From assembly GCA_046754285.1 (NCBI GenBank), contig JBHHVJ010000001.1, positions 5,056 through 69,055 on the forward strand: a stretch of DNA of 64,000 nucleotides, in the 5' to 3' direction. Under the pieces are notes generated by a model, which was given only the letters and a program-made list of their open reading frames with translations, was not told where the DNA came from and searched no databases. Positions 402 through 38,768 of this stretch are shown here, in pieces. A program made the position numbers and the translations under genes. This DNA is from Myxococcota bacterium. GTDB taxonomy: Bacteria; Myxococcota_A; UBA9160; SZUA-336. Within the stretch, counting starts at the first letter, position 1. Each line of letters opens with the position of its first letter.

Positions 402-500
402 GCGGACGCCGCACCCAGCCGGGGGGCGCGACGGTCCGGCCCGGGCAAGCTAGCTTTGCGCCCCGTTCGGGCCCCCAGGCCCCAGGTGAGAACACCAGCG

Positions 501-2413: not shown

Positions 2414-2467
2414 GCTAGCATGGCTGGGGGAGGCCGCGTACAATGCGGCCGGGGTGGGTCGGGACCG

Positions 2468-3544
2468 ATGCGGATCCTTCTGGCCGGAACGAATCATCGC
2501 GCGGAGATCCGCTCCGCGACCATCGTGCACTACGGCTTCGCGCGCGAGCTGCGCGACCGCGGCCACCGGGTCACGCTTCTCCAGGCCGCGAAGCCCGAGC
2601 ATCGCGAGCCCATCGACGGCGTCGAGATGCTCTACACCGCGAACACGCGGAAGAGCCTCTACCCTCTGATCTTCGCGCTGCGCGACCTCTCGCGCTACGA
2701 CGTGATCCACGCCAACGATCAGTCGGGGGCCTACTTCGCGCTGCGGAATCGGGTCCGTCCGCTGCCGCTCGTCGTCGAGTTCCACGCCATGCGGCTGCGC
2801 TACGAGAGCTTCTGGAAGACCAACTGGCGCTGGCGCTACACGGCCCTGGCGGCCTGGTACGCGCCGGCCCTCCTCACGCCGTCGGCCTGGCTCCGTGACG
2901 AGCTGCGTGCCTTCTACGGGCTCGACCCCGCGCGTATGCACGTGATCCCCCACGCGATCAGCGAGTACTGGTTCGAGGCGTACCGGCCCGCGGACTCCGA
3001 GTCCGGAGGCCCGCTCCGCGTCGTGCTCGTCAACATGAAGGGCGTCGACGTTGCGCTCGAGGCCTTCGCACGCGTGGGGCCACGCTACGACGCCCGCTTC
3101 GAGCTCTACGGCGTGCACAAGCAGACGGACGAGTACCGCGCGCTGGCGCACGAGCTGGGCATCGCGGAGCGCGTCGAGTTCCGCGGGTTCGTTCACAACC
3201 GCGAGCTTCCGCAGCGCCTCGCGGGGGCGGACGTGCTGCTCAACCCCACCCGGGCGGACAACTTCCCGCAGATCCTGCTCGAGACGGGCGCGCTCGGCCT
3301 GCCCGCGATCACGACGCCGGTGGGGGGCATCTCCGAGATCGTGCTCGACGACGAGACGGGCCTGCACTGCCCGATCGACGACGTCGACGCGTTCACCGCA
3401 GCCCTGGAGCGCCTGCTCGCCAACGGCTCCCTGCGCGCCCGCATGTCCAAGGCCGCCCGCGAGCGCGCCCTCGCCAACTGGCGCTGGAAGTCCGTCGTCG
3501 ATCGCATCGAGCGGGAGATCTACCGGAAGCTGTGCGCACACTGA
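2468..3544 (+). CDS. GT4-family (GT-B) glycosyltransferase, paralog of 4530..5618
   Basis: 'MRILLAG...' N-terminus. C-terminal 'FPQILLETGALGLPAITTPVGGISEIV' is an E-x7-E type motif. ATG 2468 chosen; the ORF is open from 2420. Confidence 0.85.
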   Translation: MRILLAGTNHRAEIRSATIVHYGFARELRDRGHRVTLLQAAKPEHREPIDGVEMLYTANTRKSLYPLIFALRDLSRYDVIHANDQSGAYFALRNRVRPLPLVVEFHAMRLRYESFWKTNWRWRYTALAAWYAPALLTPSAWLRDELRAFYGLDPARMHVIPHAISEYWFEAYRPADSESGGPLRVVLVNMKGVDVALEAFARVGPRYDARFELYGVHKQTDEYRALAHELGIAERVEFRGFVHNRELPQRLAGADVLLNPTRADNFPQILLETGALGLPAITTPVGGISEIVLDDETGLHCPIDDVDAFTAALERLLANGSLRARMSKAARERALANWRWKSVVDRIEREIYRKLCAH

Positions 3545-3575
3545 ACGGTCGTGGATCTCCGGGGAGGGGTCTGGC

Positions 3576-4514
3576 GTGCTGATCCTCCTGGACAAGTACT
3601 ACTCCAAGTGGCCCGAGGATGGGCTCTCACCCGTGATCTACAATCAGATCCCGACGCTCGCGGACGCGGGCCTCGAGATCCGACACCTCTTCACGGACCT
3701 TTTCCAATCGGCGGACGAGTTCGAGCAGGCGTACACACGTCTGGCCCGGCAGGAAGGCCTCGTGTGGATCTCTTCCGTGATGAGCCCCTGGATCTCCCGA
3801 TCCCTCCTGCGCTGGACGCAGCGTACGGGCATCCGGATCGTTGCCGTGTTCTGGGACGCCATCCGAATCATGGCCCCACACAAGCAGTACAAGATCTACG
3901 AGAAGCATCGCTGGTATCACGACAAGATCCATCGAGCACGTCGCGTGGCCAGCTACGCCGACGTGATCGTGCACTTCGACTGGCCCCTGAGCGCACATCC
4001 CGAGAAGACGATCTTCTTTCCCACCCCGCAGCCGCGCGACATCTTCTTTCCGACCGCAGAGAACGGCAAGACGATCGACGTCTCATTCGTGGGGGACACG
4101 AAGAAGGCCGACCGCGCTCGCTACGTAGAGTCCCTCCCCGGAATCGTGACCACAGGCGGCCGCAATCAGGAGCGAATTCCTCTCGATCGCTACGCGGAGC
4201 TGATCCGGGTTTCCAGGCTGAGCCTGAACATCGTCGATGTTCGCGAGGGGATCGACCAGCTCAACGGCCGATCGTTCGAGGTCGCCCACTCGCGAACCGC
4301 GCTGCTTCAACCGGATGGACCTAGCCTGAGGCGCTTTCTGGAGCCGGGCAAGGAGTTCATCCCACTCGAAGGTCCGGACGATCTACCCAAGAAGGTGCAG
4401 TACTATCTCGAACACGAGGTGGAGCGCGCAGAGATCGCGGCTCGGGCCTGGCGGCGCGTCACTCGGGAGTACAGCGCCGAGCGCCTCTGGGAGCAGATTC
4501 GATCCCGGCTCTGA
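3576..4514 (+). CDS. CgeB-like glycosyltransferase (Glyco_trans_1_2-type C-terminal domain)
   Basis: GTG 3576 lies in frame within the 3051..4514 ORF, just after the previous gene's stop. C-terminus 'LNGRSFEVAHSRTALLQ...GKEFIPLEGPDDLPKKVQYYLEHEVERAEIA' resembles the CgeB/DUF3880 family. Confidence 0.6.
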   Translation: MLILLDKYYSKWPEDGLSPVIYNQIPTLADAGLEIRHLFTDLFQSADEFEQAYTRLARQEGLVWISSVMSPWISRSLLRWTQRTGIRIVAVFWDAIRIMAPHKQYKIYEKHRWYHDKIHRARRVASYADVIVHFDWPLSAHPEKTIFFPTPQPRDIFFPTAENGKTIDVSFVGDTKKADRARYVESLPGIVTTGGRNQERIPLDRYAELIRVSRLSLNIVDVREGIDQLNGRSFEVAHSRTALLQPDGPSLRRFLEPGKEFIPLEGPDDLPKKVQYYLEHEVERAEIAARAWRRVTREYSAERLWEQIRSRL

Positions 4515-4529
4515 CTCTGGGGAGGGGGC

Positions 4530-5618
4530 GTGCGAGTCCTGCTCGTCAGCCGACATCACGGCGCCGAGATCCGTGGGGCGACGGTGGCCACGCACGGCCT
4601 GGTCCGTGCACTCGCCCAGAGAGGCCACGAGGTGACGCTGATCCACAGCGCGCGTCCGGAGCACCGGATGCAGATCGACGGCGTACGGATCCTCTACCAC
4701 CGCACGACGCGCAAGAGTCTCTACCCGATTCTGTATGCATTGCACCGGACCCGCCGGTACGACGTGATCCACACGAACGACGAGTCCGGAGGGGTGCTCG
4801 CGCTCAGATCCCGCGGCTTCCGATTGCCACTCGTCGCACACATCCACGCCAGCCCCACGAAGCCGAGGAGCTTCTGGCAGGCGGGTTGGCGCTGGCGGTA
4901 CATCGAGCTGGCCGTCCGCTACGCGCCGATGCTGATCACCCCCTCGCGTTGGGTCATCGGCGAGCTGGCGACGCGCTACGGACGCGACAAGAGCGTGTTT
5001 CGGGCGATTCCCAACGGAATCGGGGAGCACTGGTTCTCCGCCTCCACGAAGGATCCACCCGCGGGAGACCGAAGACCCCCTCGCATCGTGCTCGTGAACA
5101 TGCAGGGGGTCGAGACGGCCCTGCGCGCCTTCGCTCTCGTGCTCCGGGGTCGCGACGTCGAGCTGGAGCTCTACGGAAGGCACAAGGAGGAGAGTCGGTA
5201 CAGACGGCTCGCCCACGAGCTTGGCGTCGACGCACGCGTCCGGTTCTGCGGATTCGTTCCCAATGCCGAGCTCCCGACGCGGATCGCGGGGGCAGATCTT
5301 CTCCTGCACCCATCCTTGCGTGAGAGCTTCGGTCAGGTTCTCGGGGAGGCCGCGGCGCTGGGGTTGCCCGCGGTGAGCAGCGACGTCGATGCGATTCCGG
5401 AGGTCGTCGAGGACGGACGAACCGGACTGCTGGCTCCTCCCGGAGATGTGGGCGCCTTCGCAACGGCCCTGGCCTCGCTCCTGGACGATCCCGAGCAGCG
5501 TCATCGGATGGGGGCCGTGGCGCGTCAACGTGCGGAGCGCCTCTGGCGCTGGGAGAACGTGGTCGAGAGGCTCGAGAAGGAGGTCTACGGAGCGCTCGTC
5601 CGCGGCCCATCATCCTGA
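4530..5618 (+). CDS. GT4-family glycosyltransferase, paralog of 2468..3544
   Basis: Collinear similarity to 2468..3544, roughly half the residues identical by eye (e.g. 'RKSLYP', 'RYDVIH.ND.SG', 'WRWRY', 'VLVNM.GV'). E-x7-E-like motif 'FGQVLGEAAALGLPAVSSDVDAIPEVV'. Confidence 0.85.
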   Translation: MRVLLVSRHHGAEIRGATVATHGLVRALAQRGHEVTLIHSARPEHRMQIDGVRILYHRTTRKSLYPILYALHRTRRYDVIHTNDESGGVLALRSRGFRLPLVAHIHASPTKPRSFWQAGWRWRYIELAVRYAPMLITPSRWVIGELATRYGRDKSVFRAIPNGIGEHWFSASTKDPPAGDRRPPRIVLVNMQGVETALRAFALVLRGRDVELELYGRHKEESRYRRLAHELGVDARVRFCGFVPNAELPTRIAGADLLLHPSLRESFGQVLGEAAALGLPAVSSDVDAIPEVVEDGRTGLLAPPGDVGAFATALASLLDDPEQRHRMGAVARQRAERLWRWENVVERLEKEVYGALVRGPSS

Positions 5619-6415
5619 GGCTCGGCCGGCGCCGTATTGATGCGCATGACCTCCTTCCAATCGCACCAGTCGTCGTGGAAGTGCCTGCGGGAGATTCGCC
5701 CGGCGTAGACGTCCCAGATGGAGCCCAGATCGATCAGGGTGACGCGCTCTCCGACCTCCACATGAAGCCGATCGATCAGGAGGTTCGTGGTCATTCCGGC
5801 CGAAAAGAGAATCACGTCGTAGCCGGCCCGATGCAGCTCCTCCTGGATCTCCGTCTCGATGCGCCCCCGCGCCAGGAAGCAGTTGAGGGCCGGAATCTCG
5901 ACAAAGCCACCACGAGGAAAGATCTCGGACAGCGGCGCTCGGATGTGACGCGGTCCGACGAAGAGGGGGCGACGCTCACGCAGCGCGTTGACGAACGGAT
6001 TGAAGCGTCCCTCCCAGTGCGCACGCTGAAAGACGTCGGAGTCGAACCACTCGAGATCTAGCGAGCGGCTGCTCAAGAAACGCTGGATCGCTCGGGCGCC
6101 CGGCTCTCTCAACGCACCGGGCTGAAGACCGAGCAGATAGGGCGGCCGACCCTCGAGAACCTGCGAGAGCTCCGTTCGCAGCTCGGGGAAGTATTCGTGG
6201 TCGTCGCAGTTGCGGCCCTCGACCCCGAGAATGCAGTTCCACTCTCCGTCGCCGAAGCGCGAGGCTGCAAAGGGCTCCCCCGTGCGAAGCTTTTCGACGA
6301 AGAGCTCGATGGGCAGCTCTCGGACGCCGAGACGGCGCAGGTTCCTCGCCAGCCGGGCGTCCCGCAACCTCCGCTTGAGGCCTTTACGGAGGGCGCGCAA
6401 GGGATCTGCTCTCAT
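5585..6415 (-). CDS. GT-D type glycosyltransferase (DUF1792-like)
   Basis: 'FAASRFGDGEWNCILG' matches the DUF1792 'RFGDGE' signature as I recall it. High GC3 coding frame. Its 3' end overlaps the convergent GT4 gene by 34 nt. Confidence 0.6.
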   Translation of the reverse strand: MRADPLRALRKGLKRRLRDARLARNLRRLGVRELPIELFVEKLRTGEPFAASRFGDGEWNCILGVEGRNCDDHEYFPELRTELSQVLEGRPPYLLGLQPGALREPGARAIQRFLSSRSLDLEWFDSDVFQRAHWEGRFNPFVNALRERRPLFVGPRHIRAPLSEIFPRGGFVEIPALNCFLARGRIETEIQEELHRAGYDVILFSAGMTTNLLIDRLHVEVGERVTLIDLGSIWDVYAGRISRRHFHDDWCDWKEVMRINTAPAEPQDDGPRTSAP

Positions 6416-6443
6416 GGATCCAGAGCGGGCCTTGAGACCGGTC

Positions 6444-7397
6444 TCATCGACTGGCCTTCCGCGCGAAGTAGATCACCGTATCGCCGCTAGCGAGCAGCGG
6501 TCCGACGAGGGCCACCGGAACGAAGAGCAGCGCGTGCACCAGCCGTCGCGGGGAGCGAAACCAGCGTCGGAGACGCCCGAACGAGTAGCGGATCGGAATC
6601 CGCTCGTGCCGCGTCTCGAGCAGCTCGAACCCCGTCGTTTCCAGGAGCCGCCGCGCGGTTGCGGTCCCGAACTGGAAGAGATGCGCCGGGGGCTCCGGGT
6701 GCCTCCACTGGCCGAGCGGCCGAGCGAGCCGGCGCGAGAGGCGCGGGAACGCGCCGTCGATGTTCGGGGTCTCGAAGACCAGGAGCCCCTTCGGCTTGAG
6801 GATGCGATGTACGGCGGCGAGGGCCGCCTTGGGGTCTGGGAGGTGCTCGATCACGTCCCAGAGCGTGACGACGTCGAAGCTCTCGGGGTCCCAGCCGTCG
6901 TCCTCCAGCTTTCCCGTCCGCACGTCCAGACCGTATCTCTCACGCGCGATCCTCGACGTATCCGCAGAGACCTCCAACCCGCAGACCTCCCAGCCGGCCT
7001 CCCGAGCCACGCGGAGGAAGAAGCCGACGGAGCAGCCGACGTCCAGAAGACGACCCGGCTCCCGCCGCACGCGCAGCAGCTCGAAGTCGTGGCGGGCGAC
7101 ACGGAGCGCCTCTTGGAACTCGCCGGACTCGTCCCGGAGCTCCCCGTGGTAACCCGCCTCGAAGCTATACAGGGACGCGATCTCCCGGGAGGCCGGAGGG
7201 TTCGCGACGTAGACCAGCCCGCACGAGCCGCAGCGACGCAGCTCGTATCCACGCTTGACGTGGACGAGCGTGGAGTCGGTCGCCTCACAGAGCGCGCAGA
7301 TCCGTGCTACCGGGATCTCCCCCGACGGCCCCTCCTCGGCATCACGGTGTGCTCGGCTCGGGCGAGCCGGACGCGGCTGATTGGATTCTCTCGTCAT
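6444..7397 (-). CDS. class I SAM-dependent methyltransferase with N-terminal Cys4 zinc ribbon
   Basis: 'CALCEA...(18 residues)...CGSCGLVYV' zinc ribbon. Motif I 'RLLDVGCSVGFF'. 'FDVVTLWDVIEHL'. Confidence 0.8.
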   Translation of the reverse strand: MTRESNQPRPARPSRAHRDAEEGPSGEIPVARICALCEATDSTLVHVKRGYELRRCGSCGLVYVANPPASREIASLYSFEAGYHGELRDESGEFQEALRVARHDFELLRVRREPGRLLDVGCSVGFFLRVAREAGWEVCGLEVSADTSRIARERYGLDVRTGKLEDDGWDPESFDVVTLWDVIEHLPDPKAALAAVHRILKPKGLLVFETPNIDGAFPRLSRRLARPLGQWRHPEPPAHLFQFGTATARRLLETTGFELLETRHERIPIRYSFGRLRRWFRSPRRLVHALLFVPVALVGPLLASGDTVIYFARKASR

Positions 7398-7575
7398 CTC
7401 CCGAGACGCTGCGCAGAACCGCCGGGGAGGGCTCCTCTACGCCGTGGCGACGTAGTATAGCGCTGCGGAGAGAGCTGCGTTCCGGGATGCTGCGGGGCCG
7501 GAGCCACAGCGAATACGCTGGTTAAGCCCCTCGCGCAGGCACTAGAATCGTTCGACCCGTTCCAGGAGGGACGGC

Positions 7576-8721
7576 ATGAAGGGGGTGAGCCCCTCCCCGA
7601 GGCTCCGCTTGCAGCGGCTCGCGCTGGTGCTGGTGACGCTGCTCAGCGTCGCTGGGACGCTGGAGCTTGGCCTGCGGGCGTCGTGGGAAGGCTACTACCT
7701 CAAGACCCGTCGAATCTACCGACAGCCGCATCGAACACGGGGCTGGGAGAACCTCCCCGGGATCCAGCTGGAGTACGGCAAGCCGGAGTTCGCATTCGCG
7801 GTGCGCCACGACGAGCGTGGTCTGCGGATTCCGGTGGCCGGGCCCCGACCGGGCGATCGACCGTTCCGGATTCTCGTACTCGGGGACTCGTTCGCCTACG
7901 GGATCGGCGTCGAGGAGGAGGAGAGCTTCGTCGCGGGGATCGAGCGGGCCTTTCCGAGGGTCCGGACCTTCAATGCGGGGGTCGCCGGCTATGGGACCTC
8001 GCAGGAGCTCCAGACGCTGCGGGAGCTTGGCCCAGAGCTCGCTCCGGACTTCGTCCTGCTCGCGTTCTTCTGGAACGACGTGCCCACGAGCCTCTACGCG
8101 GACGTTCCGCGCTTCACGCTCGAGGGCGGACAGCTCACGTACCACCCCCCGGGTCCGAACGACGAGCGACCCGTGTTCCATGGCAAGCACGTTCCACCCG
8201 CGATCCTCAACCACAGCTACGCGTATCGATTCCTGAGCGACCGATGGAAGATGCTGCGCCTGCGCGTGGCTCTCCTCGTCGGAGCGGACCGCATCCGCTT
8301 CGAGATGCTCCGGCCCGAGAATCTCGAGCAGGCTTGGGCGTTGGAGAGGGCGCTGCTCGCCGAGATCGCCAGGGAGTGCCGTCGCCAGGGCGCCGGCTTC
8401 CTGTTCGTCGTGATTCCCGATCAGGTGCAGGTCGATCACAACGCGGAGGTGGTCGGGCTTCGACCCGAGGACTACCGCGTGCAGGAGCGGCTGGCGACGA
8501 TCGCTCGGGAGCAGGGCTTCGAGATCCTGGACCTGCTGCCGGGGCTGCGTGACGCCGCCGAGCGCTCCTCGGCGCCCCTCTACTACCGGATCGATCGACA
8601 CCTGACGCCGGCCGGGCATCGGGCAGCGGGGCAGCTGATCGTCGAGGCGCTCCGACCGCGGCTGCGCGCCGCGGGAGCGCTCGAGGCGTTGTCGGTCAGG
8701 AGAACGCGTCCAGACCCGTGA
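7576..8721 (+). CDS. membrane-anchored SGNH/GDSL-family hydrolase (paralog of 501..1658)
   Basis: Same block order as the first copy: 'LGDSFAYGIGV', 'GVAGYGTSQEL', 'FFWNDV', 'HSYAYRFLSDR', 'IPDQVQV', 'DRHLTPAGH'. Confidence 0.8.
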   Translation: MKGVSPSPRLRLQRLALVLVTLLSVAGTLELGLRASWEGYYLKTRRIYRQPHRTRGWENLPGIQLEYGKPEFAFAVRHDERGLRIPVAGPRPGDRPFRILVLGDSFAYGIGVEEEESFVAGIERAFPRVRTFNAGVAGYGTSQELQTLRELGPELAPDFVLLAFFWNDVPTSLYADVPRFTLEGGQLTYHPPGPNDERPVFHGKHVPPAILNHSYAYRFLSDRWKMLRLRVALLVGADRIRFEMLRPENLEQAWALERALLAEIARECRRQGAGFLFVVIPDQVQVDHNAEVVGLRPEDYRVQERLATIAREQGFEILDLLPGLRDAAERSSAPLYYRIDRHLTPAGHRAAGQLIVEALRPRLRAAGALEALSVRRTRPDP

Positions 8722-9867: not shown

Positions 9868-10209
9868 CTAGACGTTCTCGCGCGTGAGCTCGCTCAGCTT
9901 CTTCGAGATCGTCGTGAGCTTGCGATTGAGCCGAGCGATATCGGCCTTGGTGGCCAGGCCGAAGGCGTCGAAGACCTGCGTCCGCGCGCGCTCGACCCGA
10001 TCCTCCAGGCCCCTGCGCGCCTCCTCCGCGCGCTTGTAGACCGTGCTCTTGCGGAGATCCGTCTGGATCCGCTCGGCCCGCTTGCGGACCTCGCCCTCGA
10101 CCCGCTTGCGACGATCGTCGAAGCGCTCGCGCAGCTCGTGCAGCTGCTCATCGAGGTTGCGAAGGGCCTCGTTGAAGCGGTCGAAGCCTGTCGTCTGTGT
10201 CTCGGCCAT
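9868..10209 (-). CDS. phasin-like coiled-coil protein (PHA-granule-associated protein family)
   Basis: ATG 10209 is preceded by 'GGGAGGTG' about 7 nt upstream. Charged coiled-coil sequence. C-terminal 'FGLATKADIARLNRKLTTISKKLSEL' resembles the phasin TIGR01837 family. Confidence 0.55.
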   Translation of the reverse strand: MAETQTTGFDRFNEALRNLDEQLHELRERFDDRRKRVEGEVRKRAERIQTDLRKSTVYKRAEEARRGLEDRVERARTQVFDAFGLATKADIARLNRKLTTISKKLSELTRENV

Positions 10210-10278
10210 ATCGATCACCTCCCTCTTGGACGCGCCCAATATAACACGCTGCGTCAAGAAGGCAAGTCCATGTATTAC

Positions 10279-10307
10279 ATAATAATATCAATACCTTACA
10301 TAACCAA
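10279..10307 (-). promoter_or_regulatory. candidate sigma70-type promoter for the phasin-like gene
   Basis: Minus strand reads TTGGTT-(17 nt)-TATTAT inside the only strongly AT-rich stretch in this part of the window. The 11-bp palindrome ATGTAATACAT (10270-10280) overlaps the -10. Confidence 0.35.
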
Positions 10308-10340
10308 CGTCCCGGGAGTTAGACGCGGGCCGTCAGGGGG

Positions 10341-11345
10341 CTACCAGCGGAGGAGGGCGGCGCCCCAGGTGAATCCGGAGCCGAACCCGGCCAGCAGGAC
10401 CAGGTGGCCGGGGCGGATGCGGCCCACCCGGGCGCACTCGTCCAAGCACATCGGGATCGAGGCCGCGGAGCAGTTCCCGTAGATGTCGATGTTGTTGTAG
10501 GTCTTCTCGGGGGGAATGCCGAGCTGGCCGGCGACGTACTCGTTGATGCGGAGGTTGGCCTGGTGGAAGATGAAGAAGTCGACGTCGCCCACCGAGCACT
10601 TGTTCGCCGCGAGCGCCTCGTGGATCACCTCGGGCATTCGCCGAACCGCGTGCTTGAAGACGAAGCGGCCGTCCATCTTCGGGTACATCAGGCCCTGCTC
10701 GAGCATCCGGGGCGTGAGGCGCGGCTTGTGGACGCAGCCGGGGGCGTCGACCCAGAGCTTCTTGGCGTGCTTGCCTTCGGCGTGCAGGTGCACGGAGAGG
10801 ATCCCTCGCTCGGCGTCCTCGCTCGGCTCCAGGATCAGGGCACCCGCGCCATCTCCGAAGATCACGGCGACGTCGCGTCCCCTCGTCGAGAAATCGAGGC
10901 CGCTGGAGTGCACCTCGGCGCCGCAGACGAGCACGCGGTCGTACTGGCCCGAGGCCACGTAGAGCTGACCGACCTGGAGCGCGTACAGGAAGCCCGTGCA
11001 CTGGCAGCGGATGTCCATCGCCGGAATTTCCGAGATGCCGAGCATGTCCTGTAGGAAGGCCGAGGTGCCGGGGAACTCGTGGTGGGGCGAGAGGGAGGGA
11101 ACGAGGATTGCGTCGAGGTCCTCAGGCCCGAGCCCCGCTGACTCGAGCGCTTGACGTGAGGCCTCGAGTGCGAGGTGCGCAGGACCCGTGCCATCCTCCA
11201 CGTGGTGTCGCTGCCGAATACCCGTGCGCTGCTGGATCCACTCGTCGCTCGTGTCCATGAGCTTCTCGAGATCCGCGTTGGTCACGACCTGCGGCGGGAC
11301 GTACATCCCCGTGCCCGCGATGCCGACGCGCCGAAGCACCTGCAT
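10341..11345 (-). CDS. fabH: 3-oxoacyl-ACP synthase III
   Basis: 'IAGTGMYVPPQVVTNADLEKLMDTSDEWIQQRTGIRQRH', active-site 'CTGFLYAL', 'FHQANLRI' and C-terminal 'GFGSGFTWGAALLRW'. Start at internal ATG 11345, directly after the hflX stop. Confidence 0.9.
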   Translation of the reverse strand: MQVLRRVGIAGTGMYVPPQVVTNADLEKLMDTSDEWIQQRTGIRQRHHVEDGTGPAHLALEASRQALESAGLGPEDLDAILVPSLSPHHEFPGTSAFLQDMLGISEIPAMDIRCQCTGFLYALQVGQLYVASGQYDRVLVCGAEVHSSGLDFSTRGRDVAVIFGDGAGALILEPSEDAERGILSVHLHAEGKHAKKLWVDAPGCVHKPRLTPRMLEQGLMYPKMDGRFVFKHAVRRMPEVIHEALAANKCSVGDVDFFIFHQANLRINEYVAGQLGIPPEKTYNNIDIYGNCSAASIPMCLDECARVGRIRPGHLVLLAGFGSGFTWGAALLRW

Positions 11346-21106: not shown

Positions 21107-21916
21107 TCAGCCCACGAGCTCGGTCGGCTTCTCCAGGAGCTGGCGAAGTCGCTCCAGGCTCCGGGCACAGTAGAGGCCGTCCTCGATCCGCTCATCGAAG
21201 CTGTACTTGAGCAGCGCGCGTCGGCGGCCGTCGGCGCCTTCCCGGATACGACCGACGACACAGAAGATCGGAATCGTGCCGTACTCCCAGAGGTGGTGGT
21301 AGCCCGCATCCAGGCCCACCGAGCCGAGGTTCGCGATGAAGGCCGAGGCGAACATGGGATCGCTGCGGATCATCGCCGCGGGCAGCAGCCCGAGCGCGTC
21401 AAAGGCGCGCGCGGCGGCCAGCGCGAGACGAACCAGCAGCGGAGGTAGACGGAGAAGCCACGCGACCTCCCGATCGCTGGTGTCCGGGCGGTCACTGCGC
21501 CGGTCTTCGAGCGCGCCGTGGATGCGCGCCAGCATCTCGTCGAGCGGAGCCCGGGGGTCGAGCTCGAGCTTGACCGTGACGATCGGCGCCGACTCCTCGA
21601 GCCGCTTCTTGGCGCTGAACGTGAGCCAGATGCCGCGACGCTGCCAGACCCGGCCTCCGGCCACGAAGCGATTGAGACGGGGACGCTCGTCGAGCACCCG
21701 GGCGATCGCCCGGAGAACCAGGTGAAAGAAGGTCAGCTTCGGCCCGTCTGGGCGCTCACGGTTCCAGGCCTCGACGAGCTCGAGGGCCGGCTCGACATCG
21801 ATCTCCTGAGACAGGTAGACGGCGGAGTCGTTGCGTCCCGGCGAGATGAACGGCATGAAGCGGCGGATCGGCGGCAGGTCGCGCACGAGGGTCCCGTCCG
21901 GACGGCGTCCGAACAT
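21107..21916 (-). CDS. stand-alone 2-oxoacid dehydrogenase acyltransferase (E2) catalytic-domain-like protein
   Basis: CAT-like fold signature near the C-terminus, 'DAGYHHLWEYG', in place of the canonical 'DHRxxDG'. No lipoyl or subunit-binding domain. Confidence 0.6.
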   Translation of the reverse strand: MFGRRPDGTLVRDLPPIRRFMPFISPGRNDSAVYLSQEIDVEPALELVEAWNRERPDGPKLTFFHLVLRAIARVLDERPRLNRFVAGGRVWQRRGIWLTFSAKKRLEESAPIVTVKLELDPRAPLDEMLARIHGALEDRRSDRPDTSDREVAWLLRLPPLLVRLALAAARAFDALGLLPAAMIRSDPMFASAFIANLGSVGLDAGYHHLWEYGTIPIFCVVGRIREGADGRRRALLKYSFDERIEDGLYCARSLERLRQLLEKPTELVG

Positions 21917-21922
21917 CCCGGC

Positions 21923-22450
21923 TCAGTCCAGACCCTCGATCACGGCGAGATGATCGAGCTCCCGATAATGTCCCTCCAGATCCATCCCGAAGCCGACGAC
22001 CCAGCCCTTCTCGACCTCGAAGACCGAGTAGGCGATCTCCAGATCGACCCGCCGCCGACCGTGCTTGCTCACCAGCACGGCGATGCGCACGCTGCCCGGC
22101 CCGCCGGCTCGGACCTGGGCCAGAATCGCCGCGAGCGTGCGCCCTTCATCCGCGATGTCGTCGAGCAAGAGAACGTCACGAGCGTGAAAGAGAGCGGGGT
22201 CCATCGGCTCGAGCTTGATGGGCAGCAGGCTCGAGCCGTGCGTGCGGTGGGCTCTGACGAAGACACGCTCGGTCTGCATGCCGAGCCCGTTCAAGCGTTC
22301 CAGCAGCTTCTCGGCGAAGACGCGCGCCCCCTCCTCGATGATGACGCAGACGATAGGACGGCCACGGTAGTCCCCGAAGATGCGTTCCGCGAGGCGATCG
22401 ATCCGTTCCGCAACCTCCCGCGACGAATGGAGCTCCCGGAGGGGGTGCAT
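21923..22450 (-). CDS. hpt: hypoxanthine phosphoribosyltransferase
   Basis: PRPP-binding loop 'VLLLDDIADEGRTL'. Size and N-terminus fit Hpt. Confidence 0.85.
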   Translation of the reverse strand: MHPLRELHSSREVAERIDRLAERIFGDYRGRPIVCVIIEEGARVFAEKLLERLNGLGMQTERVFVRAHRTHGSSLLPIKLEPMDPALFHARDVLLLDDIADEGRTLAAILAQVRAGGPGSVRIAVLVSKHGRRRVDLEIAYSVFEVEKGWVVGFGMDLEGHYRELDHLAVIEGLD

Positions 22451-22537
22451 GGGCGCATGCTACGGCATCGGCCCGGCGCTTCCAAGCCGGCCGTCGCGTT
22501 GCGGCGTGACCCCGGGCGGGAGTAGGATCTCGCCCTC

Positions 22538-23347
22538 ATGCCCAGCCCACCCGTTCCGGCCGCGACGCTGATCCTGCTCCAGGACGGGCCCGTCTCGCCG
22601 CGCGTGCTCCTGCTGCAACGGGACGCACGGAGCGATCTGCTCCCCGACGCCTACGTGTTTCCGGGCGGGCGCGTGGAGGAGGACGACGCTCGCCTGGCTC
22701 CGGAGCTCGAGCTGGAGGAGCGCGGCCTCTCCGGTCTGACCCCACGAGCGCTCGGAGGCCTCATGGTCGCCGCGATCCGCGAGACCTTCGAGGAGGCCGG
22801 GCTGCTGCTGGTGCGCCACCGGGGGCAGACGTCCCTGCTCACCGCAGACGACCTCGCGGCCCTACACGAGGACCGCCGGGCCCTCCAGAGCGGGCGTCTC
22901 CGCTTTGCGGAGCTGATCGCGCGCAAGGAGCTCGAGCTCGCCTTCGACACGCTCGTGCCGCACGCGCGCTGGATCACACCGGAGATCGTGCCGCGGCGCT
23001 TCGATACGTTCTTCTTCGCTGCCCGCGCACCCCGCAAACAAGTGGCCCTGCACGACGGTGTCGAGGCCTCGTCCCATGTCTGGATCCGCCCCGAAGATGC
23101 GCTGGCGGAGCGCGAGAGAGGCGAGCGGGCGATGATCTTTCCGACCGCCTGCAACCTGGAGTCGCTCGTGGGCTTCGACGACGTCGAGGAGGCTCTCGCG
23201 GCGTCGCGGAGGCGTCCACTCAGTACGATTCTGCCCGTGCTCGAGCTGCGGGACGGCCGGCGCTGCATGGTGATCCCCCGCGATGCCGGCTACTCGAGAA
23301 CCACGGAGCCGGTTGAAGCGCTCCCCCGGGGCCATCTCGAGACCTGA
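22538..23347 (+). CDS. NUDIX hydrolase
   Basis: 'FPGGRVEEDD...(28 residues)...IRETFEEAGLLL' is a Nudix-box-like segment. Confidence 0.7.
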   Translation: MPSPPVPAATLILLQDGPVSPRVLLLQRDARSDLLPDAYVFPGGRVEEDDARLAPELELEERGLSGLTPRALGGLMVAAIRETFEEAGLLLVRHRGQTSLLTADDLAALHEDRRALQSGRLRFAELIARKELELAFDTLVPHARWITPEIVPRRFDTFFFAARAPRKQVALHDGVEASSHVWIRPEDALAERERGERAMIFPTACNLESLVGFDDVEEALAASRRRPLSTILPVLELRDGRRCMVIPRDAGYSRTTEPVEALPRGHLET

Positions 23348-23362
23348 TAGACTCTACGGGCC

Positions 23363-24361
23363 ATGCACGAGATCGTCGTATTAGGGGGGTACGGACGGGT
23401 CGGACAGCTCTGTGTCGCGGAGCTCGTGAAGAGCACGCGCGCGCGCATCGTGGTGGCCGGGCGCAGCATTCAGCGAGCCGAGGACGTGGCCGCCGCCCAT
23501 GGAGGACGTGCAAGGGCGGCGTACGTGAATGCGGAGGACCGCCGAACCCTCCAGCGTGCGCTGCCCGGTTCGGCCCTCGTGGTGTTCTGCGCCGGCGCCG
23601 ATCTGCTCGACTCTCTCGTCCAAGCCATCGACGCCTGCGTGCCGTTCATCTCACTCACGCCCTCCACGCTGGAGCCGAGAGCGGCGTACGAGCTCCAGCG
23701 ACGCGCCTGGACGGCACAGGTTCCGGTGGTCCTGGAAGCCGGCGCGGTTCCGGGGCTGCCCGGCGTGCTCGCCGAGCTCCTGGTCCGCTCCTTTCCGGCG
23801 CTCCACGAGATCCGCATCGCGTGCACCGGCCCCTGGCTGGGCAGCGGGGCGGCTCTCGGGAGCCAGCGGGTGCGAGCGGACACCGGTCGGGGCGACGGAT
23901 GGCTCCGGCGACCCGTGCGCTGGCGCTTCTCCCCACGCATCGGGAGCCGCTGGCTCCGGCCCTCCAGCTCTGGGGATCTGGCGGGCTTCGTCGAGTCGCA
24001 CTGTGTGGAGCGCCTCGTCTACCTGGAGCCGGAGAGCGGACCGCTGCGGCGTTTGGCCAAGCGCGGCCCGCGAACGCGAGACGGTGGCTTTGCGCTGGCC
24101 GCCGCCGCAACGGTCGAGCGGGGCACGCAGCTGCTCGAGGATCTGGTCACGCTCGAGGCCGTGGATCCGCTCGAGGCGGCGGCGGCGAGCCTGGGAACCC
24201 TGGCCGGACGCGTCTTGCGCGGCCGCATGCCTGGCGGGTTCTTCGTACCGCGGGAGGCCCTCGATCCGCTCAGCTACCTCGGCCAGCTCGAGAAGCGAGG
24301 GGTGCGGGTGTCGACGAGCCTGCCGATGGTCCCGGCCTCCGCGGCCGAATCGCTCGCTTAG
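23363..24361 (+). CDS. saccharopine dehydrogenase-like NAD(P)-binding protein
   Basis: 'IVVLGGYGRVGQL' Rossmann loop at the N-terminus. Overall resemblance to Sacchrp_dh_NADP proteins. Confidence 0.65.
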   Translation: MHEIVVLGGYGRVGQLCVAELVKSTRARIVVAGRSIQRAEDVAAAHGGRARAAYVNAEDRRTLQRALPGSALVVFCAGADLLDSLVQAIDACVPFISLTPSTLEPRAAYELQRRAWTAQVPVVLEAGAVPGLPGVLAELLVRSFPALHEIRIACTGPWLGSGAALGSQRVRADTGRGDGWLRRPVRWRFSPRIGSRWLRPSSSGDLAGFVESHCVERLVYLEPESGPLRRLAKRGPRTRDGGFALAAAATVERGTQLLEDLVTLEAVDPLEAAAASLGTLAGRVLRGRMPGGFFVPREALDPLSYLGQLEKRGVRVSTSLPMVPASAAESLA

Positions 24362-25122
24362 TGGGCGATCTGGCTGAGTTTCCGTTTGGGCTGCGGACCT
24401 TTCTGCGGGCCTACCGCTGGCGCCGAGTCGATCCCATCCCCTGGGTTGATCCCAAGCGGCCGCTCGCCCAGTCACGTGTGGCCCTCGTCTCGACCGCCGG
24501 ATTCGTGCTCGACGGCCAGCTCCCGTTTGATTCATCGATCCGCGGCGGAGACCTCAGCTTTCGCGAGATCCCGGGCGACGCCGACGTGGCACAGCTCGTC
24601 GACACCCACCGCAGCGAGTCCTTCGATCACACGGGCATGACGCAGGACCCCAACCTCGCCTTCCCCATCGATCGCATTCGGGAGCTCGCCGCAAGGGGTC
24701 GCATCGGCGAGCCGGCGCCCCGACATCTCTCGTTCATGGGATCGATTCTCGCTCCCGGTCGGCTCGTACGGGACACGGCGCCGGAGGCCGCCAGACGGCT
24801 GCGCGAGGACGGGGTGGACGCCGCACTGCTCGTTCCCGTCTGACCGATGTGCAATCAGGCCGTGTGCCTGATCGCGGCCGAGCTGGAGCGGCAAGGGATC
24901 GCCACCGTCGCGATCGTGCTGCTGCGGCGGGTCGCCGAGCGCGTGCGTCCGCCCCGGGCCCTGGCGGTGCCTTTTCGGCACGGCTACCCGCTGGACGCAC
25001 CCGGCGAGCCCGAGCGGCAGCTCGCCGTCGTCGAGGCCACGCTCGCGCTGCTCGAGGACCCCTCGCTCAGGCCCCCGGTGCTCGTCGATCTTCCCGAGCG
25101 CACGGCACCCTCGGCGCTCTGA
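24361..25122 (+). CDS. GrdB/PrdB-family (glycine/sarcosine/betaine/D-proline reductase selenoprotein B-like) protein with in-frame TGA (Sec) at 24841-24843
   Basis: ORFs 23821..24843 and 24847..25122 share one frame and are separated only by TGA. The junction reads '[28 protein letters not shown]', a U-x-x-C motif at the family position. GTG 24361 overlaps the upstream TAG. A SECIS-like hairpin follows the TGA. Confidence 0.7.
24851..24875 (+). promoter_or_regulatory. SECIS-like stem-loop downstream of UGA
   Basis: Perfect stem ATCAGGC (24854-24860) / GCCTGAT (24866-24872) with loop CGTGT. The stem can be extended after one mismatch (c52-g74, g51-c75, plus u50-g76 wobble just outside these coordinates). 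The loop begins 17 nt after the UGA. Confidence 0.55.
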
Positions 25123-25142
25123 GGGCCGAGGGTCGGGGCCGC

Positions 25143-26030
25143 TCAGCCCGCGCGCAGAAGATCGCGCAGGGCGCGCATCCCGATCGTGTGGACTCCCGGC
25201 TCCTGGAGAACCGCGGCCATCTGGCCGTCGGAGTAGATGCGGTGCTCCTCGTCGCGCTGGCGCCAGTCGACCGTCACGGACTCGAGCTCGGAACCGCCCT
25301 CGGCGCAGTGCGTGATCAGGTACGAGAGGCCGGGGCCCAGCCCCGCGACCCGTTCGCGATTGTGCTGGAGCCCGTGACCGGGCTCGAAGTGCAACGAGTT
25401 CTGATCGAAGTGGTCGAAGAGGGGGAAGCCCTCCGCCTCGACCTCCTCGATCAGCTCCAGATAGGGCGCGAGCCGGTCGGCCAGCCCGCGGGCCCTCAGA
25501 ACTTCCACGTCGAGCCGCGGAATGAACAACGGCACGCGCAGCTCGCGTCCGAGCCTCACGTAGCTCTGCACGAACGCGAGGTCGAACACCGTTCCCATGT
25601 GGGCATCGAGATGGGTCACGTCGATTCCCGCCGCGAGGGCGCGCTCGACCTGCGCGCGAAGCTCGCGCTCGACCTCGTCGGGGCGGGCGTGAGCGACCAC
25701 CTCGGCCGTGCTGCGCCACATCCCCCCATCGGGTGAGACCAGCGAGGGCACGTCGTCCAGCACCGGGCCCCAGCGCAGTACCTCGTGCTCAGCGTTGAGC
25801 GTCAGATGGACGCCGAGGTCGAGCTCGGGTCGTGCGCGTGCGAGCTCTGCGACCTCCTCGAAGGCCGGACAGGGAACCATGACGCTCGCGGAGGTTGCCG
25901 CACCCCCGAGTGCGCGCAGGGCACCCCGGTTGGCCGCCGAGCACAGACCCATGTCGTCCACGTGGACGACGATCACACGATCGCCCCGTGCGAAGCCGAG
26001 CCGTTCGATCAGCGAGGCGTCCGATGTCAT
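25143..26030 (-). CDS. ChbG/HpnK (YdjC) family carbohydrate deacetylase
   Basis: 'VIVVHVDDMGLCSAANRG', 'LGVHLTL' and 'THLDAHMG' are YdjC-family motifs. Confidence 0.8.
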   Translation of the reverse strand: MTSDASLIERLGFARGDRVIVVHVDDMGLCSAANRGALRALGGAATSASVMVPCPAFEEVAELARARPELDLGVHLTLNAEHEVLRWGPVLDDVPSLVSPDGGMWRSTAEVVAHARPDEVERELRAQVERALAAGIDVTHLDAHMGTVFDLAFVQSYVRLGRELRVPLFIPRLDVEVLRARGLADRLAPYLELIEEVEAEGFPLFDHFDQNSLHFEPGHGLQHNRERVAGLGPGLSYLITHCAEGGSELESVTVDWRQRDEEHRIYSDGQMAAVLQEPGVHTIGMRALRDLLRAG

Positions 26031-35355: not shown

Positions 35356-37430
35356 AGCTCGACCAGCTCGCGAAGCTGCACGCTTCGCGCCGGCAGCTCG
35401 AACGACTCGCCGGCAAGCAGATGCTGTCCCACACCGCGGACCTCCCGGAGCGCCTCACGGGGTGCGAGCGCGATCGTGACACGCAACAGGCGTTCAAGGG
35501 GGTTGGCCAGAAAGAGAAAGCGTCGCTCACCGCCGTGGTGCAGCTCTGTCTCCACACGCGGGTCGGACGCCGCGTAGCAGGGGCGGACATCGAACGGATC
35601 GAGCAGTGCCCGCACGACGTCCGCCAGGGCATCGTCCTTGACGTCGGGAGAGCGCCACGGCAGCCGGAAGCCAAAGTGAACGACTTGGCCGCGGCCCTGC
35701 GGAACCCTCACAGCGAGCGGCCCCGCCTCAGAGCCTATCACGGGCTCTCCCCCCTCGAGCACGTCGGCAGCCTCGATCTCGAGCGCACCGCAACGCGCAC
35801 GCTCGATCCGTGCTCGGGCGCGCATGGGAAACTCGAAGCCGAGCGCGCGGCCGCCCCAGTCGATGCGGGGCACGCGCGGTCCCAGAACGAGCCGACCCCC
35901 GGCCTCCACCCAGCGCCGCAGCCGGAGTGCGAGTGCGGGACTCATGCGTTCGCAGCTCGGCAGGATCGCCACACGCCAGCGCGAGAGCTCAGCCTCGGGA
36001 ATCGATGTGTCCGCAACCGAGAACGCGATCCCCGCCCGACACAGGCCGGTGAACAGACCCTCGAAGAGCGGCTCGTGCAGTGTCTCCATCGGATCCAGCA
36101 GCCCCAGCGGCCGTGGTCGCACGCGGAGGGCCTCCAGTGCCGACGGGGAGGCGAGGCTCGGGCTCAGTGCACCATGAGAGGCACAGGCTTCACGCAAGCG
36201 GCCCAGCTCGCGGTTGGCGAGCAGCAGGCAGTCACTGCGCCGCTCGAGACGCGCGTGATCGATCGCATCGAGCATGCGAAACAGACGCTGCCAACCCGAG
36301 CCCTCGGTCGGATCCCCACCGGGACCGAGCGGGGCCGAAAGCTCGCCGAGACCGTCGCACGCAAGCAATGTCTCGAGATCCAGCGCGCGCACGCCGCTCA
36401 TGGCGAGCACCGCGGCTGCTTCAGCTCCCGGCAGCGGAAGCTCGTCGCGACACCACGAACGCGTGGACGGGATCCCGAGCACGGCGGCCAGAGGTGCGTG
36501 CGCGGACGCCCGCAGACCCAGGCGGCGCAGCCTGGAGAAGCTGGCGCGAGCCGCATCACCGAGAACGAAGCTCACGCCCTGAGCGTGCGACGCCCAGGCA
36601 TCCGCACCGCAGCCGGGTGGATCGTCGTGCACGGCCTCGATCAGAGCGCCGTCGGCTTCGCTCTGCGCGCGGGCGAGCGCGGCACGGCCGACGATCTCGC
36701 GGTGGAGCAGCTCCCCCGCCTCGACCCAGGCGAGCGCACCCTCCAAGTCCTCGGGACCCTCCGGTCCGGTCAGCGGGGGTGCCCCGGTCGGTGCGCCACC
36801 CTGCGGGAACTTCACGCTCAGAAAGCGGGCGTGGAAGGCGAGGGACTCGGGTGCGCGGTCGAGCATTCCCCCACCCCGAACCGGCCTGCGCGAGCCGGGT
36901 CCGGATGCGATCCAGCCGACGACGGGCCCACGGGGCGGGGCGTACGACGCGAAACGCTTCGCGACCGCCTCGAGCCAGACGCAGGACTCGTGTCGCAGCT
37001 GATCCGACGCCGGGGACAAGAGGCCAGGCTCCGGACCTCCGACACCGCGCGCGCGGACGTGGGCGAGAGCGAGAAGGCGGCGCGGGACGCCGTCGCCCGA
37101 CCGCACCCCCGAACCGAGCCAGGGAGCCGGCCGAAGAACCACGAGCAGCCCCCGTGCGTGTGCGATCTCGAGCAGCCGCGGCACGTCGAGGAGCGGATTC
37201 TGCTCGCCCCAGTCGAGCTGCCCGGGAGTGATCTCGTGCCGAGCCCACGACAGGTCCAGCCGCAGCAAGCGGATGCCGAGGCTCGCGGCTCCGTCCACGC
37301 AGGCCTCCCAGCGGGCCGGCGCGATCTCCCAGTACGGCAGACCCGCGGAGCGCCACGGCACGTGGCATCCATCGGTGTCGATTCCGTGGGGGCTCAGGCG
37401 AACCCCGCGGCGTGGACCGCGATCGCTCAT
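35352..37430 (-). CDS. GH35/GH42 beta-galactosidase-like TIM-barrel protein (possibly non-catalytic)
   Basis: 'LPYWEIAPARWEACVDGAASLGIRLLRLDLSWARHEITPGQLDWG...LLEIAHARGLLVVLRPAPW' follows the GH35/42 N-terminal pattern. The expected 'NE' acid/base site appears to read 'GWIASGPG'. Confidence 0.55.
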   Translation of the reverse strand: MSDRGPRRGVRLSPHGIDTDGCHVPWRSAGLPYWEIAPARWEACVDGAASLGIRLLRLDLSWARHEITPGQLDWGEQNPLLDVPRLLEIAHARGLLVVLRPAPWLGSGVRSGDGVPRRLLALAHVRARGVGGPEPGLLSPASDQLRHESCVWLEAVAKRFASYAPPRGPVVGWIASGPGSRRPVRGGGMLDRAPESLAFHARFLSVKFPQGGAPTGAPPLTGPEGPEDLEGALAWVEAGELLHREIVGRAALARAQSEADGALIEAVHDDPPGCGADAWASHAQGVSFVLGDAARASFSRLRRLGLRASAHAPLAAVLGIPSTRSWCRDELPLPGAEAAAVLAMSGVRALDLETLLACDGLGELSAPLGPGGDPTEGSGWQRLFRMLDAIDHARLERRSDCLLLANRELGRLREACASHGALSPSLASPSALEALRVRPRPLGLLDPMETLHEPLFEGLFTGLCRAGIAFSVADTSIPEAELSRWRVAILPSCERMSPALALRLRRWVEAGGRLVLGPRVPRIDWGGRALGFEFPMRARARIERARCGALEIEAADVLEGGEPVIGSEAGPLAVRVPQGRGQVVHFGFRLPWRSPDVKDDALADVVRALLDPFDVRPCYAASDPRVETELHHGGERRFLFLANPLERLLRVTIALAPREALREVRGVGQHLLAGESFELPARSVQLRELVEL

Positions 37431-37508
37431 GGGCGCTCACCTTCCGCACCCACGCTACCACAGCGACCCGATGCGCAGCGCGAGAGGGGGCACTACCCTG
37501 GGCGCGCT

Positions 37509-38768
37509 TTGGCCGATGCCCTCCCTGAGATTCGCTGCCGCGTTCCGGGTCCGCACTCGCGGGCCCTGACGGACCGCCTGGCCGGGGTCGAATGCCCGGA
37601 GGTCACCTGCCTCACGCAGCCCACCGTCTTTTGGGAGCGCGCCACGGGGTCGAACGTGATCGACGTGGACGGCAATCGCTACGTCGACCTGGTTGCGGGG
37701 TTCGGTGTGGCCGCACTCGGCTATGCGCATCCGGAGCTGAGCGCCGTCGCCGCGGAGCAGGCGGCCACGCTGCCCCACGCGATGGGCGACGTCCACCCGG
37801 CGCGCGTCAAGGTCGAGCTGCTCGAGCGACTCCGCGGCGTCCTGCCGAATGGGCTCGACTCCACCCTCCTCTCCTCATCGGGCTCGGACGCGGTCGAGAG
37901 CGCGTTGAAGACGGCGCTGGTGGTAAACGGAAGACCGGACGTGCTGGCCTTTGAGGGCGCATACCATGGACTGGGCCTGGGCGCCCTCGACGTCACACAC
38001 GCCGAGCGCTTTCGCCGTCCCTTCCTCGCGCGGCTGCCGAGCCGAACCCACTTCGTCCCCTATGGCGATGACGCGGCCGCGCGACGGCTCGCCACCCTTG
38101 TACCGCTCGGGGCGATTCTGGTGGAGCCGATCCAGGGACGCGGCGGGATCCGGGTACCACCCGATGGCTTTCTCACGGCCCTGCGCGAGATCGCAGACCA
38201 GACGGGAGCCCTGCTGATCGCGGACGAAGTGTACACGGGTCTATGTCGAACCGGACCCTGGCTGGCCTGCGAGCACGAGAGCGTGGTCCCCGATCTGGTC
38301 ACGCTGGGGAAGGGCCTCGGGGCGGGCTTTCCGATCTCGGCCTGCGTGGGCAGGAGCGAGATCATGAGCTGCTGGGAGCCTTCGCGGGGCGACGCGATCC
38401 ACACCAGCACCCATCTGGGCAATCCGTTGGGATGCGCACTGGGCCTGCGCGTGCTCGAGATCCTCGAGCGAGAGCGAATCCACGAACGTGTCGCCGGCCT
38501 CGGCGCACATCTTCGCGACCGGCTCGAGAGCGAGGTCCGCAAGCGGCCCGGCGTACGCGACGTGCGAGGGCGCGGACTGATGCACGGGATCGAGCTGGAG
38601 GACCCCAAGCGGGCCGCCGCCATCGTGCACGAGGCCCTGCGACGCGGCTGGATCCTGCTCGCCGACGGGCCGCGCGCCAGCGTGCTCACGCTCACACCCC
38701 CGCTCACGATCGCCGAGCCCGTGCTCGACGCGGCCGTCGATCTGCTTCTGGAGCTGCTGGACGGATGA
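37509..38768 (+). CDS. class-III (omega) PLP-dependent aminotransferase
   Basis: 'DVDGNRYVDLVAGFGVAALGYAHPEL', 'SSGSDAVESALK', 'ADEVYTGLCRTG' and 'DLVTLGKGLGAGFP' (PLP Lys). TTG 37509 is the only in-frame start upstream of the conserved core. Confidence 0.85.
   Translation: MADALPEIRCRVPGPHSRALTDRLAGVECPEVTCLTQPTVFWERATGSNVIDVDGNRYVDLVAGFGVAALGYAHPELSAVAAEQAATLPHAMGDVHPARVKVELLERLRGVLPNGLDSTLLSSSGSDAVESALKTALVVNGRPDVLAFEGAYHGLGLGALDVTHAERFRRPFLARLPSRTHFVPYGDDAAARRLATLVPLGAILVEPIQGRGGIRVPPDGFLTALREIADQTGALLIADEVYTGLCRTGPWLACEHESVVPDLVTLGKGLGAGFPISACVGRSEIMSCWEPSRGDAIHTSTHLGNPLGCALGLRVLEILERERIHERVAGLGAHLRDRLESEVRKRPGVRDVRGRGLMHGIELEDPKRAAAIVHEALRRGWILLADGPRASVLTLTPPLTIAEPVLDAAVDLLLELLDG

Follow-up and report, generated by a model that had tools for sequence, protein, structure and literature searches.

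A PrdB-like gene with an in-frame UGA and a conserved downstream hairpin in a Myxococcota bacterium: a probable selenoprotein of an orphan branch of the GRDB superfamily

The locus

The 64,000-nucleotide stretch of DNA analyzed here (the window) comes from a Myxococcota bacterium (NCBI GenBank assembly GCA_046754285.1, contig JBHHVJ010000001.1, positions 5,056 to 69,055 of the forward strand). It carries a gene of the GRDB superfamily, to which PrdB and GrdB belong, whose reading frame contains one internal TGA codon with a hairpin shortly downstream. The features of this gene, which very probably encodes a selenoprotein with selenocysteine (Sec) at the TGA and the hairpin as its selenocysteine insertion sequence (SECIS), are the following.

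24361..25122, + strand: PrdB-like (GRDB-superfamily) gene, complete, probable selenoprotein; 253 residues including Sec161; terminal stop TGA at 25120-25122
24361..24363, + strand: GTG start codon, overlapping the TAG of the upstream gene (24359-24361) by 1 nt
24841..24843, + strand: in-frame UGA, probably read as selenocysteine (residue 161); TGA in 78/80 and TGC in 2/80 related loci
24841..24852, + strand: predicted redox center U161-P-M-C164 (UxxC); C164 at least 90% conserved
24851..24875, + strand: probable SECIS hairpin; lower pairs 24851-52/24874-75, A24853/C24873 mismatch, upper stem 24854-24860/24866-24872, loop CGUGU 24861-24865

Read directly, the frame that opens at GTG 24361 continues to the TGA at 25120-25122 with the TGA at 24841-24843 as its sole interruption, and 160 amino acids, the UGA, and a further 92 amino acids make up the 253 residues. 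The in-frame codons after the internal TGA are CCG ATG TGC AAT CAG GCC GTG TGC CTG ATC. An initial annotation, made from the letters of the DNA, had placed the open reading frames (ORFs) 23821..24843 and 24847..25122 in one frame split by this TGA and had given the sequence of the junction; our reading of the window agrees on both. The start that it proposed, GTG 24361 overlapping the upstream TAG, matches the NCBI and Logan gene calls, and homologs begin at an aligned MG(D/E/S)xxEF.

Gene callers halt at the UGA and report two proteins, of 160 and 91 amino acids. The same TGA is present in two independent Logan assemblies of the source organism (SRR29324593 and SRR29324594), each called as 160 plus 91 amino acids, and the NCBI metagenome-assembled genome (MAG) gives an identical 160-residue call. 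A sequencing or assembly error hiding a true TGC or TGT, a concern raised with the initial annotation, is scarcely credible in view of these three concurring records and of the TGA found in 78 other loci. A reassigned genetic code is ruled out because TGA serves as an ordinary stop, ending 24 of 40 genes in the window and 45 of 80 of the homologs' own genes. The other in-frame TGAs in the window lie between adjacent genes that share a frame, and none besides 24841 was a further selenoprotein candidate.

Conservation of the UGA codon and of the sequence beyond it

Relatives were collected in two ways. A search of 5.8 billion proteins returned >3,000 relatives, the best 120 of which were inspected, and a tblastn scan of GTDB, with one genome for each species, detected a relative in 389 species, the best 80 loci of which were analyzed. 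Among the best 120 proteins, 23 are full-length (247-286 amino acids), and the remainder are exactly 160 amino acids long and end in LLVPV. All 23 full-length clusters have Cys at the UGA column, in the context PV-C-PMCNQ. At the DNA level, codon 161 is TGA in 78 of the 80 best loci and TGC in the other two. These loci span more than eight phyla, including Binatia, Acidobacteriota/Thermoanaerobaculia, Myxococcota, Verrucomicrobiota, Desulfobacterota, Gemmatimonadota, Marinimicrobia, Brocadia, and others. The U-x-x-C motif that the initial annotation had recognized at the TGA is thus borne out as U161-P-M-C164, with Cys aligned to U161 in homologs. In total, at least 389 GTDB species carry a PrdB-like gene, and ~98% of the sampled ones use Sec.

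The tblastn matches cross the TGA and reach about residue 244 in the 80 loci. Some 90 residues after the TGA are conserved (U-P-[MF]-C-N-Q-[AT]-V-x-L-[VI]-A-A-E-L-E-R-Q-G-I ... PPRA), and the invariant columns past Sec include N165, Q166, E176, R177, G179, and P197-P198-R199-A200. The next Cys after the UxxC motif (C169) is variable among relatives, being C, G, or S.

These data bear directly on whether the UGA is a genuine stop, leaving a 160-residue product (a pseudogene or a natural short form), perhaps with an independent 91-residue protein started at ATG 24847. Gene callers annotate the locus in this way, and the window does have an ATG 3 nt past the TGA. However, decay cannot be reconciled with a TGA kept at the same codon in 78 loci of many phyla and with purifying selection on the 92 downstream codons. 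Because 17 of the 80 loci lack any start codon past the TGA, the 91-residue ORF is not an independent gene. The relatives with Cys are single fused proteins, and a covarying hairpin (described below) would have no role after a genuine stop. We therefore regard termination at this codon as highly improbable, and the proposal of a single 253-codon gene is upheld.

Two further observations concern the Sec/Cys column. A Binatia contig carries two PrdB-like copies ~4.2 kb apart (6001-6760 and ~10184-10940, with Sec codons at 6481 and 10664); both have the TGA and an intact hairpin, and a G-U pair (GCC...UGU) in one copy takes the place of a G-C in the other. Distant relatives (P0155, P0140, P0158, P0219, and P0183) have Trp (PVWPVCNQ), Ser (AVSPVCNR), Gly (PVGPLDHQ), or other residues at this column, and a Sargasso Sea form has U-P-L-D in place of UxxC, which indicates that the superfamily includes members without a two-residue redox pair.

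A covarying hairpin downstream of the UGA

The upper stem, ATCAGGC (24854-24860) with GCCTGAT (24866-24872), is perfectly complementary over 7 bp; it begins 10 nt and its loop 17 nt after the TGA. Under the A24853/C24873 mismatch lie C24852-G24874, G24851-C24875, and a wobble pair U24850-G24876. The initial annotation had described this stem, loop, and spacing correctly, together with an extension of three pairs; all three are present in the window, but relatives conserve the first two only, and the U24850-G24876 pair is not conserved.

The hairpin was examined in an ungapped alignment of 80 Sec-type sequences (76 distinct). For the upper stem together with the two lower pairs, 97.8% of pair cells in the 76 distinct sequences are paired, compared with 19-47% when the 3' strand is shifted by 1-3 nt. 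Compensatory changes, in which both sides are altered, occur at five of the nine pairs, and the observed covariation was reached by none of 500 shuffles. RNAalifold recovered the same hairpin unprompted, with covariation, and the hairpin is the minimum-energy structure in 56 of 80 relatives. Pair 19:27 is G-C in 45 sequences, A-U in 27-30, and neither in 4 (Fisher P = 3e-17), and its state changed at least 17 times along a neighbor-joining tree made from the rest of the gene; here Ala GCC alternates with Thr ACC, offset by a synonymous xGC to xGU exchange two codons on. Pair 15:31 is C-G in 55 and U-A in 13, AAC...GUx alternating with AAU...AUx. At one locus (L013), even a double non-synonymous change (GCC to GUC and GGC to GAC) preserves a pair.

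Codon choice is constrained to preserve the hairpin. GUG makes up 41.5% of the Val codons at other positions of these genes but is chosen for the loop Val in 70 of 80 loci (P = 1.6e-17). Ser at the closing pair is always encoded by AGY (29 of 29), a share that is 35% at other positions (P = 7e-14). G and U are present in every loop, the sequence of which is CGUGN (or SGUCN). In the Cys forms the hairpin is degraded in all six examined, which keep 5-8 of the 9 pairs (1-4 broken); their energy in the hairpin structure ranges from +0.1 to -10.7 kcal/mol, compared with a mean of -13.25 kcal/mol for the Sec forms. Comparison with relatives thus shows overwhelmingly that the hairpin is no chance pairing, and the claim that a SECIS lies just 3' of the UGA is supported by the pairing of the hairpin, its compensatory changes, its unprompted recovery, and its decay where Sec is replaced by Cys.

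Because of the shared frame, the Sec/Cys column, the conservation downstream, the covariation of the hairpin, and its loss in Cys forms, we consider it very probable that the locus is a single 253-residue selenoprotein gene of an orphan PrdB-like branch of the GRDB superfamily, with its UGA recoded via a SECIS, and that its product is probably a stand-alone reductase and not D-proline reductase. In this mechanism, the UGA at 24841-24843 would be recoded as selenocysteine, and recoding would depend on the SECIS within the coding sequence, that is, the 7-bp upper stem, the CGUGU loop, and the two lower G-C pairs. By analogy with Escherichia coli, the binding site of the complex SelB·GTP·Sec-tRNA(Sec) would be the apical loop with its GU.

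Several observations weigh against this interpretation. Single-sequence folding of the window hairpin in a 63-nt context is no better than that of shuffles (z = 0.28), and its minimum-energy fold is a competing hairpin (GGCCGUG/CGCGGCC, 24858-24864/24873-24879) overlapping the 3' half of the SECIS stem; the SECIS hairpin is 1.0 kcal/mol less stable, with ~14% ensemble probability. Rfam gave no match at gathering thresholds in the whole window, and no SECIS family around the site even at E ≤ 10. The 64-kb window has no tRNA at all and hence no tRNA-Sec (ARAGORN), and Pfam found no SelA, SelB, or SelD domain in the 36 window genes scanned. As to function, the redox mechanism and the stand-alone status are inferred, and a partner may be encoded elsewhere.

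In a window of 69% G+C, and at z = 0.28, the hairpin is unremarkable by itself, so that its support comes from the comparison with relatives, among which the competing hairpin is not conserved. A 30-nt piece folded alone takes the SECIS hairpin as its minimum-energy structure (-13.4 kcal/mol). The flanks of 60 related loci were likewise free of tRNA-Sec, and we presume that the source genome encodes the Sec machinery.

Selenocysteine or a standard amino acid

The UGA might also be read through with a standard amino acid, Trp or Cys, inserted by a near-cognate tRNA, with the hairpin acting as a generic stimulator of read-through. The window without Sec machinery would suit this explanation, as would the base after the UGA, which is invariably C; UGA followed by C is a leaky stop context. 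The position, however, is that of the catalytic Sec/Cys in a family experimentally shown to use Sec (PrdB and GrdB), and at the 80 loci the only codon other than TGA is TGC, accompanied by decay of the hairpin, which is the classic Sec/Cys signature that defines selenoproteins. The geometry also speaks for a bacterial SECIS, with a spacing of ~10-11 nt and GU in a small apical loop. In the SECIS of E. coli fdhF, the upper stem-loop starts ~10-11 nt after the UGA and has GU in its small apical loop. The window hairpin resembles it in being within the ORF, immediately 3' of the UGA, and in its small GU-containing apical loop, and the distances from the UGA to its stem (10 nt) and its loop (17 nt) agree with this geometry. 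It differs in having no bulged U in the upper stem, and the two sequences are unrelated. We thus judge insertion of a standard amino acid to be very unlikely and favor selenocysteine as the residue encoded by codon 161.

Placement in the GRDB superfamily

The initial annotation had assigned the protein to the GrdB/PrdB family, which holds at the level of the superfamily: Pfam GRDB (PF07355) matches residues 17-158 with 32.5 bits (cutoff 22). The assignment does not extend to PrdB or GrdB proper. The NCBIfam equivalog model for PrdB, TIGR04483, matches residues 28-233, across the TGA, with 118.7 bits, below its curated cutoff of 300, while the true PrdB P0255 scores 453.2 bits; TIGR01918 gives 38.8 bits (cutoff 65.45) and TIGR01917 (GrdB) 38.1 bits (cutoff 602), with matches confined to model positions ~220-420. 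The window protein and P0255 are 30% identical over a nearly full-length alignment (E = 3e-33), in which U161 occupies the column of the first Cys in the P0255 motif CGTC. Judging from these profile scores and alignments, the window protein belongs to the GRDB superfamily, nearest to PrdB, but is neither a PrdB nor a GrdB equivalog.

PrdB, the D-proline reductase subunit of Clostridium sticklandii (TIGR04483; Kabisch et al., 1999, as cited in later work), shares with the window protein the length class of ~240-250 residues and a UxxC at the aligned position. No prdA, prdC, or other prd gene lies beside the window gene. The motif context differs, being PV-U-PMC-NQ in the window protein and GG-[U/C]-GTC-HR in PrdB, and the hosts of the orphan branch are not Stickland fermenters, its carriers belonging mostly to non-Stickland lineages. 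Compared with GrdB/GrdF/GrdH (TIGR01917, TIGR01918, and PF07355), the window protein matches the C-terminal half of GrdB (model positions ~200-420 of ~431), with UxxC in both. GrdB, however, is a two-domain protein of ~430 amino acids, and the window protein (253 amino acids) is without its ~200-residue N-terminal half; the GrdB motif is UxxCxxC, while the following Cys is variable in the window family; and there is no grdA, grdE, or grdC near the window gene.

An AlphaFold2 model was made of the Cys homolog P0001, which is 70% identical to the window protein (predicted local distance difference test score 94, predicted template-modeling score 0.93). In the model, the U/C-x-x-C motif lies between a strand (154-158) and the N-terminus of a helix (162-177), which is the usual setting of redox-active CxxC centers. 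The PDB copy searched holds no relative by sequence, and Foldseek with this model gave no match at E ≤ 1e-3 (best E = 8e-3, TM-score 0.33). By this model, Sec161 and Cys164 would sit at the N-terminus of an α-helix after a β-strand and would most likely cycle between selenol/thiol and selenenylsulfide, like the UxxC of PrdB and GrdB. The best reading, from the position of the motif, the homolog model, and the lack of conserved neighbors (see below), is a selenol/thiol oxidoreductase that would work like the PrdB/GrdB UxxC center and stand alone.

Some observations on the wider superfamily may be recorded here. In the window protein, P0001, P0255, and P0128 alike, the match to Pfam GRDB runs out immediately ahead of the Sec/Cys column (profile positions 342-347 of 347), and the conserved region of ~90 residues after Sec is covered by no Pfam family; the PF07355 model thus seems to stop at the selenocysteine. 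Four longer relatives (P0128, P0129, and P0147, of 380-420 amino acids, and P0197, of 495) have a PrdB-like domain with CxxC kept, then a C-terminal extension of ~150 unannotated residues, and in one extended relative a DNA-binding domain of the HTH_3 (XRE) type is fused at the N-terminus. The 2005 Sargasso supplement (PMC1088965) includes a Sec form of this longer architecture (LLTPVuPNCTRSV). A link to the "UGSC" selenoprotein family, suggested by a weak match of the distant relative P0213 (E = 9e-4), was not reproduced for the window protein or for PrdB and was dropped.

Gene neighborhood

Two genes lie upstream of the PrdB-like gene on the same strand.

23363..24361, + strand: saccharopine-dehydrogenase-like NAD(P)-binding gene (Pfam Sacchrp_dh_NADP, E = 7e-10), upstream and translationally coupled; not a conserved partner
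22538..23347, + strand: NUDIX-domain gene (Pfam NUDIX, E = 3e-6), 15 nt upstream of the saccharopine-dehydrogenase-like gene; local context

The initial annotation had placed these two genes in an operon with the PrdB-like gene. Because the three are co-directional and tightly spaced, with a 1-nt stop/start overlap, local co-transcription is plausible, but the arrangement was found in none of the 80 other loci: eight window neighbors searched by tblastn had no match beside the PrdB-like gene there. A promoter and terminator scan of 21800-25400 found nothing. All-against-all clustering of flanking ORFs revealed no family in more than 11 of the 80 loci, and a Pfam census of the 127 nearest neighbors counted 176 families, led by alpha/beta hydrolase (8), cyclophilin (5), OsmC (5), and prolyl oligopeptidase (4). 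PrdA, PrdC, GrdA, thioredoxin, and thioredoxin reductase were all missing among these 127 neighbors. The neighbors at four Cys-form loci are equally heterogeneous, with no PrdA, PrdC, or shared neighbor.

It is here that a genuine PrdB subunit of D-proline reductase, with its PrdA proprotein encoded elsewhere in the genome, has to be weighed. TIGR04483 is the top NCBIfam match, JGI and some NCBI records label relatives "D-proline reductase (dithiol) PrdB", length class and UxxC motif are the same, and a few neighbors are related to proline, namely the cyclophilins and prolyl oligopeptidases just counted. These points are opposed by a score far below that of true PrdB, by the low identity to it, by the absence of PrdA, PrdC, or any shared neighbor at the 80 loci and the four Cys-form loci, and by the mostly non-Stickland carriers. 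We consider a true PrdB unlikely. The lack of a conserved neighbor, together with scores far below the PrdB and GrdB cutoffs, points to a protein that is probably stand-alone and not part of D-proline reductase.

Proline-related genes do occur loosely around the family. In the window, a prolyl-tRNA synthetase and an aminopeptidase P (47646-50285, - strand, and 52878-54287, + strand) lie 23-29 kb from the PrdB-like gene, and elsewhere the five neighbors with cyclophilin domains are peptidyl-prolyl isomerases, which with the four prolyl oligopeptidases are distributed over loci L023, L031, L032, L060, L061, L072, L077, and others. These surroundings are probably a coincidence.

Two other regions of the window deserve mention. 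The ORF at 35421-38765 (+ strand, 1115 residues) matches a class-III aminotransferase only in its last 380 residues (E = 4e-92), and its N-terminal ~730 residues have no Pfam match (E ≤ 1e-5); it may be a fusion or have an over-extended start. In the cluster at 456-8721, which looks like a locus for polysaccharide modification, two paralogous genes for acyl-hydrolases of the SGNH/AlgX-like type (456-1655 and 7576-8718) accompany two glycosyltransferases of family GT4 (2420-3541 and 4530-5615) and, on the - strand, a methyltransferase (6447-7397).

Earlier records of the family and significance

Zhang, Fomenko & Gladyshev (2005, PMC1088965) listed 42 Sec forms and a single Cys form of "Proline reductase PrdB" (UxxC) in the Sargasso Sea metagenome and ranked it third in abundance among the selenoprotein families there, and 235 Sec and 110 Cys forms were later counted under pfam07355 in the Global Ocean Sampling (GOS) metagenomes (Zhang & Gladyshev, 2008, PMC2398784). 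The supplement of the 2005 paper prints ...DIALLVPSuGLCNQTVGLVQREIESRGVSTVS...PPRAY, and in the DNA of a 2005 Sargasso "PrdB" (TGAGGCCTCTGCAACCAGACGGTCGGTCTGGTC) the 7-bp hairpin of the window gene recurs, again with a spacing of 10 nt. The Sargasso sequence AACY01023739 and the window protein are 49% identical over 86 residues around Sec (E = 2e-23). The Sargasso/GOS "PrdB" and the window protein share the superfamily and the Sec position, with the pattern LLVP-x-U-x-x-C-N-Q-[AT]-V-G-L-V...E-R-Q-G-I-S-T-V...PPR. They differ in that the window protein falls in a subgroup of 57-75% identity with U-P-M-C, mostly from soil, sediment, and groundwater MAGs, whereas the marine sequences of the supplement have U-G-[LI]-C.

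The selenoprotein family and its SECIS are accordingly known since 2005, and the window gene adds a member that is not new in kind. The 2005 and 2008 papers class the family as D-proline reductase and are silent on the lack of PrdA, and recent reviews list it simply as D-proline reductase. The papers that we searched do not address the absence of PrdA from the orphan branch and its failure against the PrdB model, nor its truncation by annotation pipelines and the Pfam model.

This truncation has consequences. Because NCBI, JGI, and Logan calls cut the gene at the UGA and Pfam GRDB ends at the Sec column, the UxxC center and the C-terminal 92 residues are missing from databases, where hundreds of clusters have a length of exactly 160 residues. 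The family is among the commonest selenoproteins of environmental bacteria. Its strong preference for Sec over Cys implies a demanding redox chemistry. The family has been filed under D-proline reductase without the obligate PrdA partner, and its real substrate is a testable question. We lean, by a little, toward the orphan PrdB-like proteins being a distinct stand-alone selenoenzyme, very widespread and acting on a substrate other than D-proline. Systematic truncation in public annotation hides the gene when the metabolism of Binatia, Acidobacteriota, Myxococcota, Verrucomicrobiota, and marine lineages is reconstructed.

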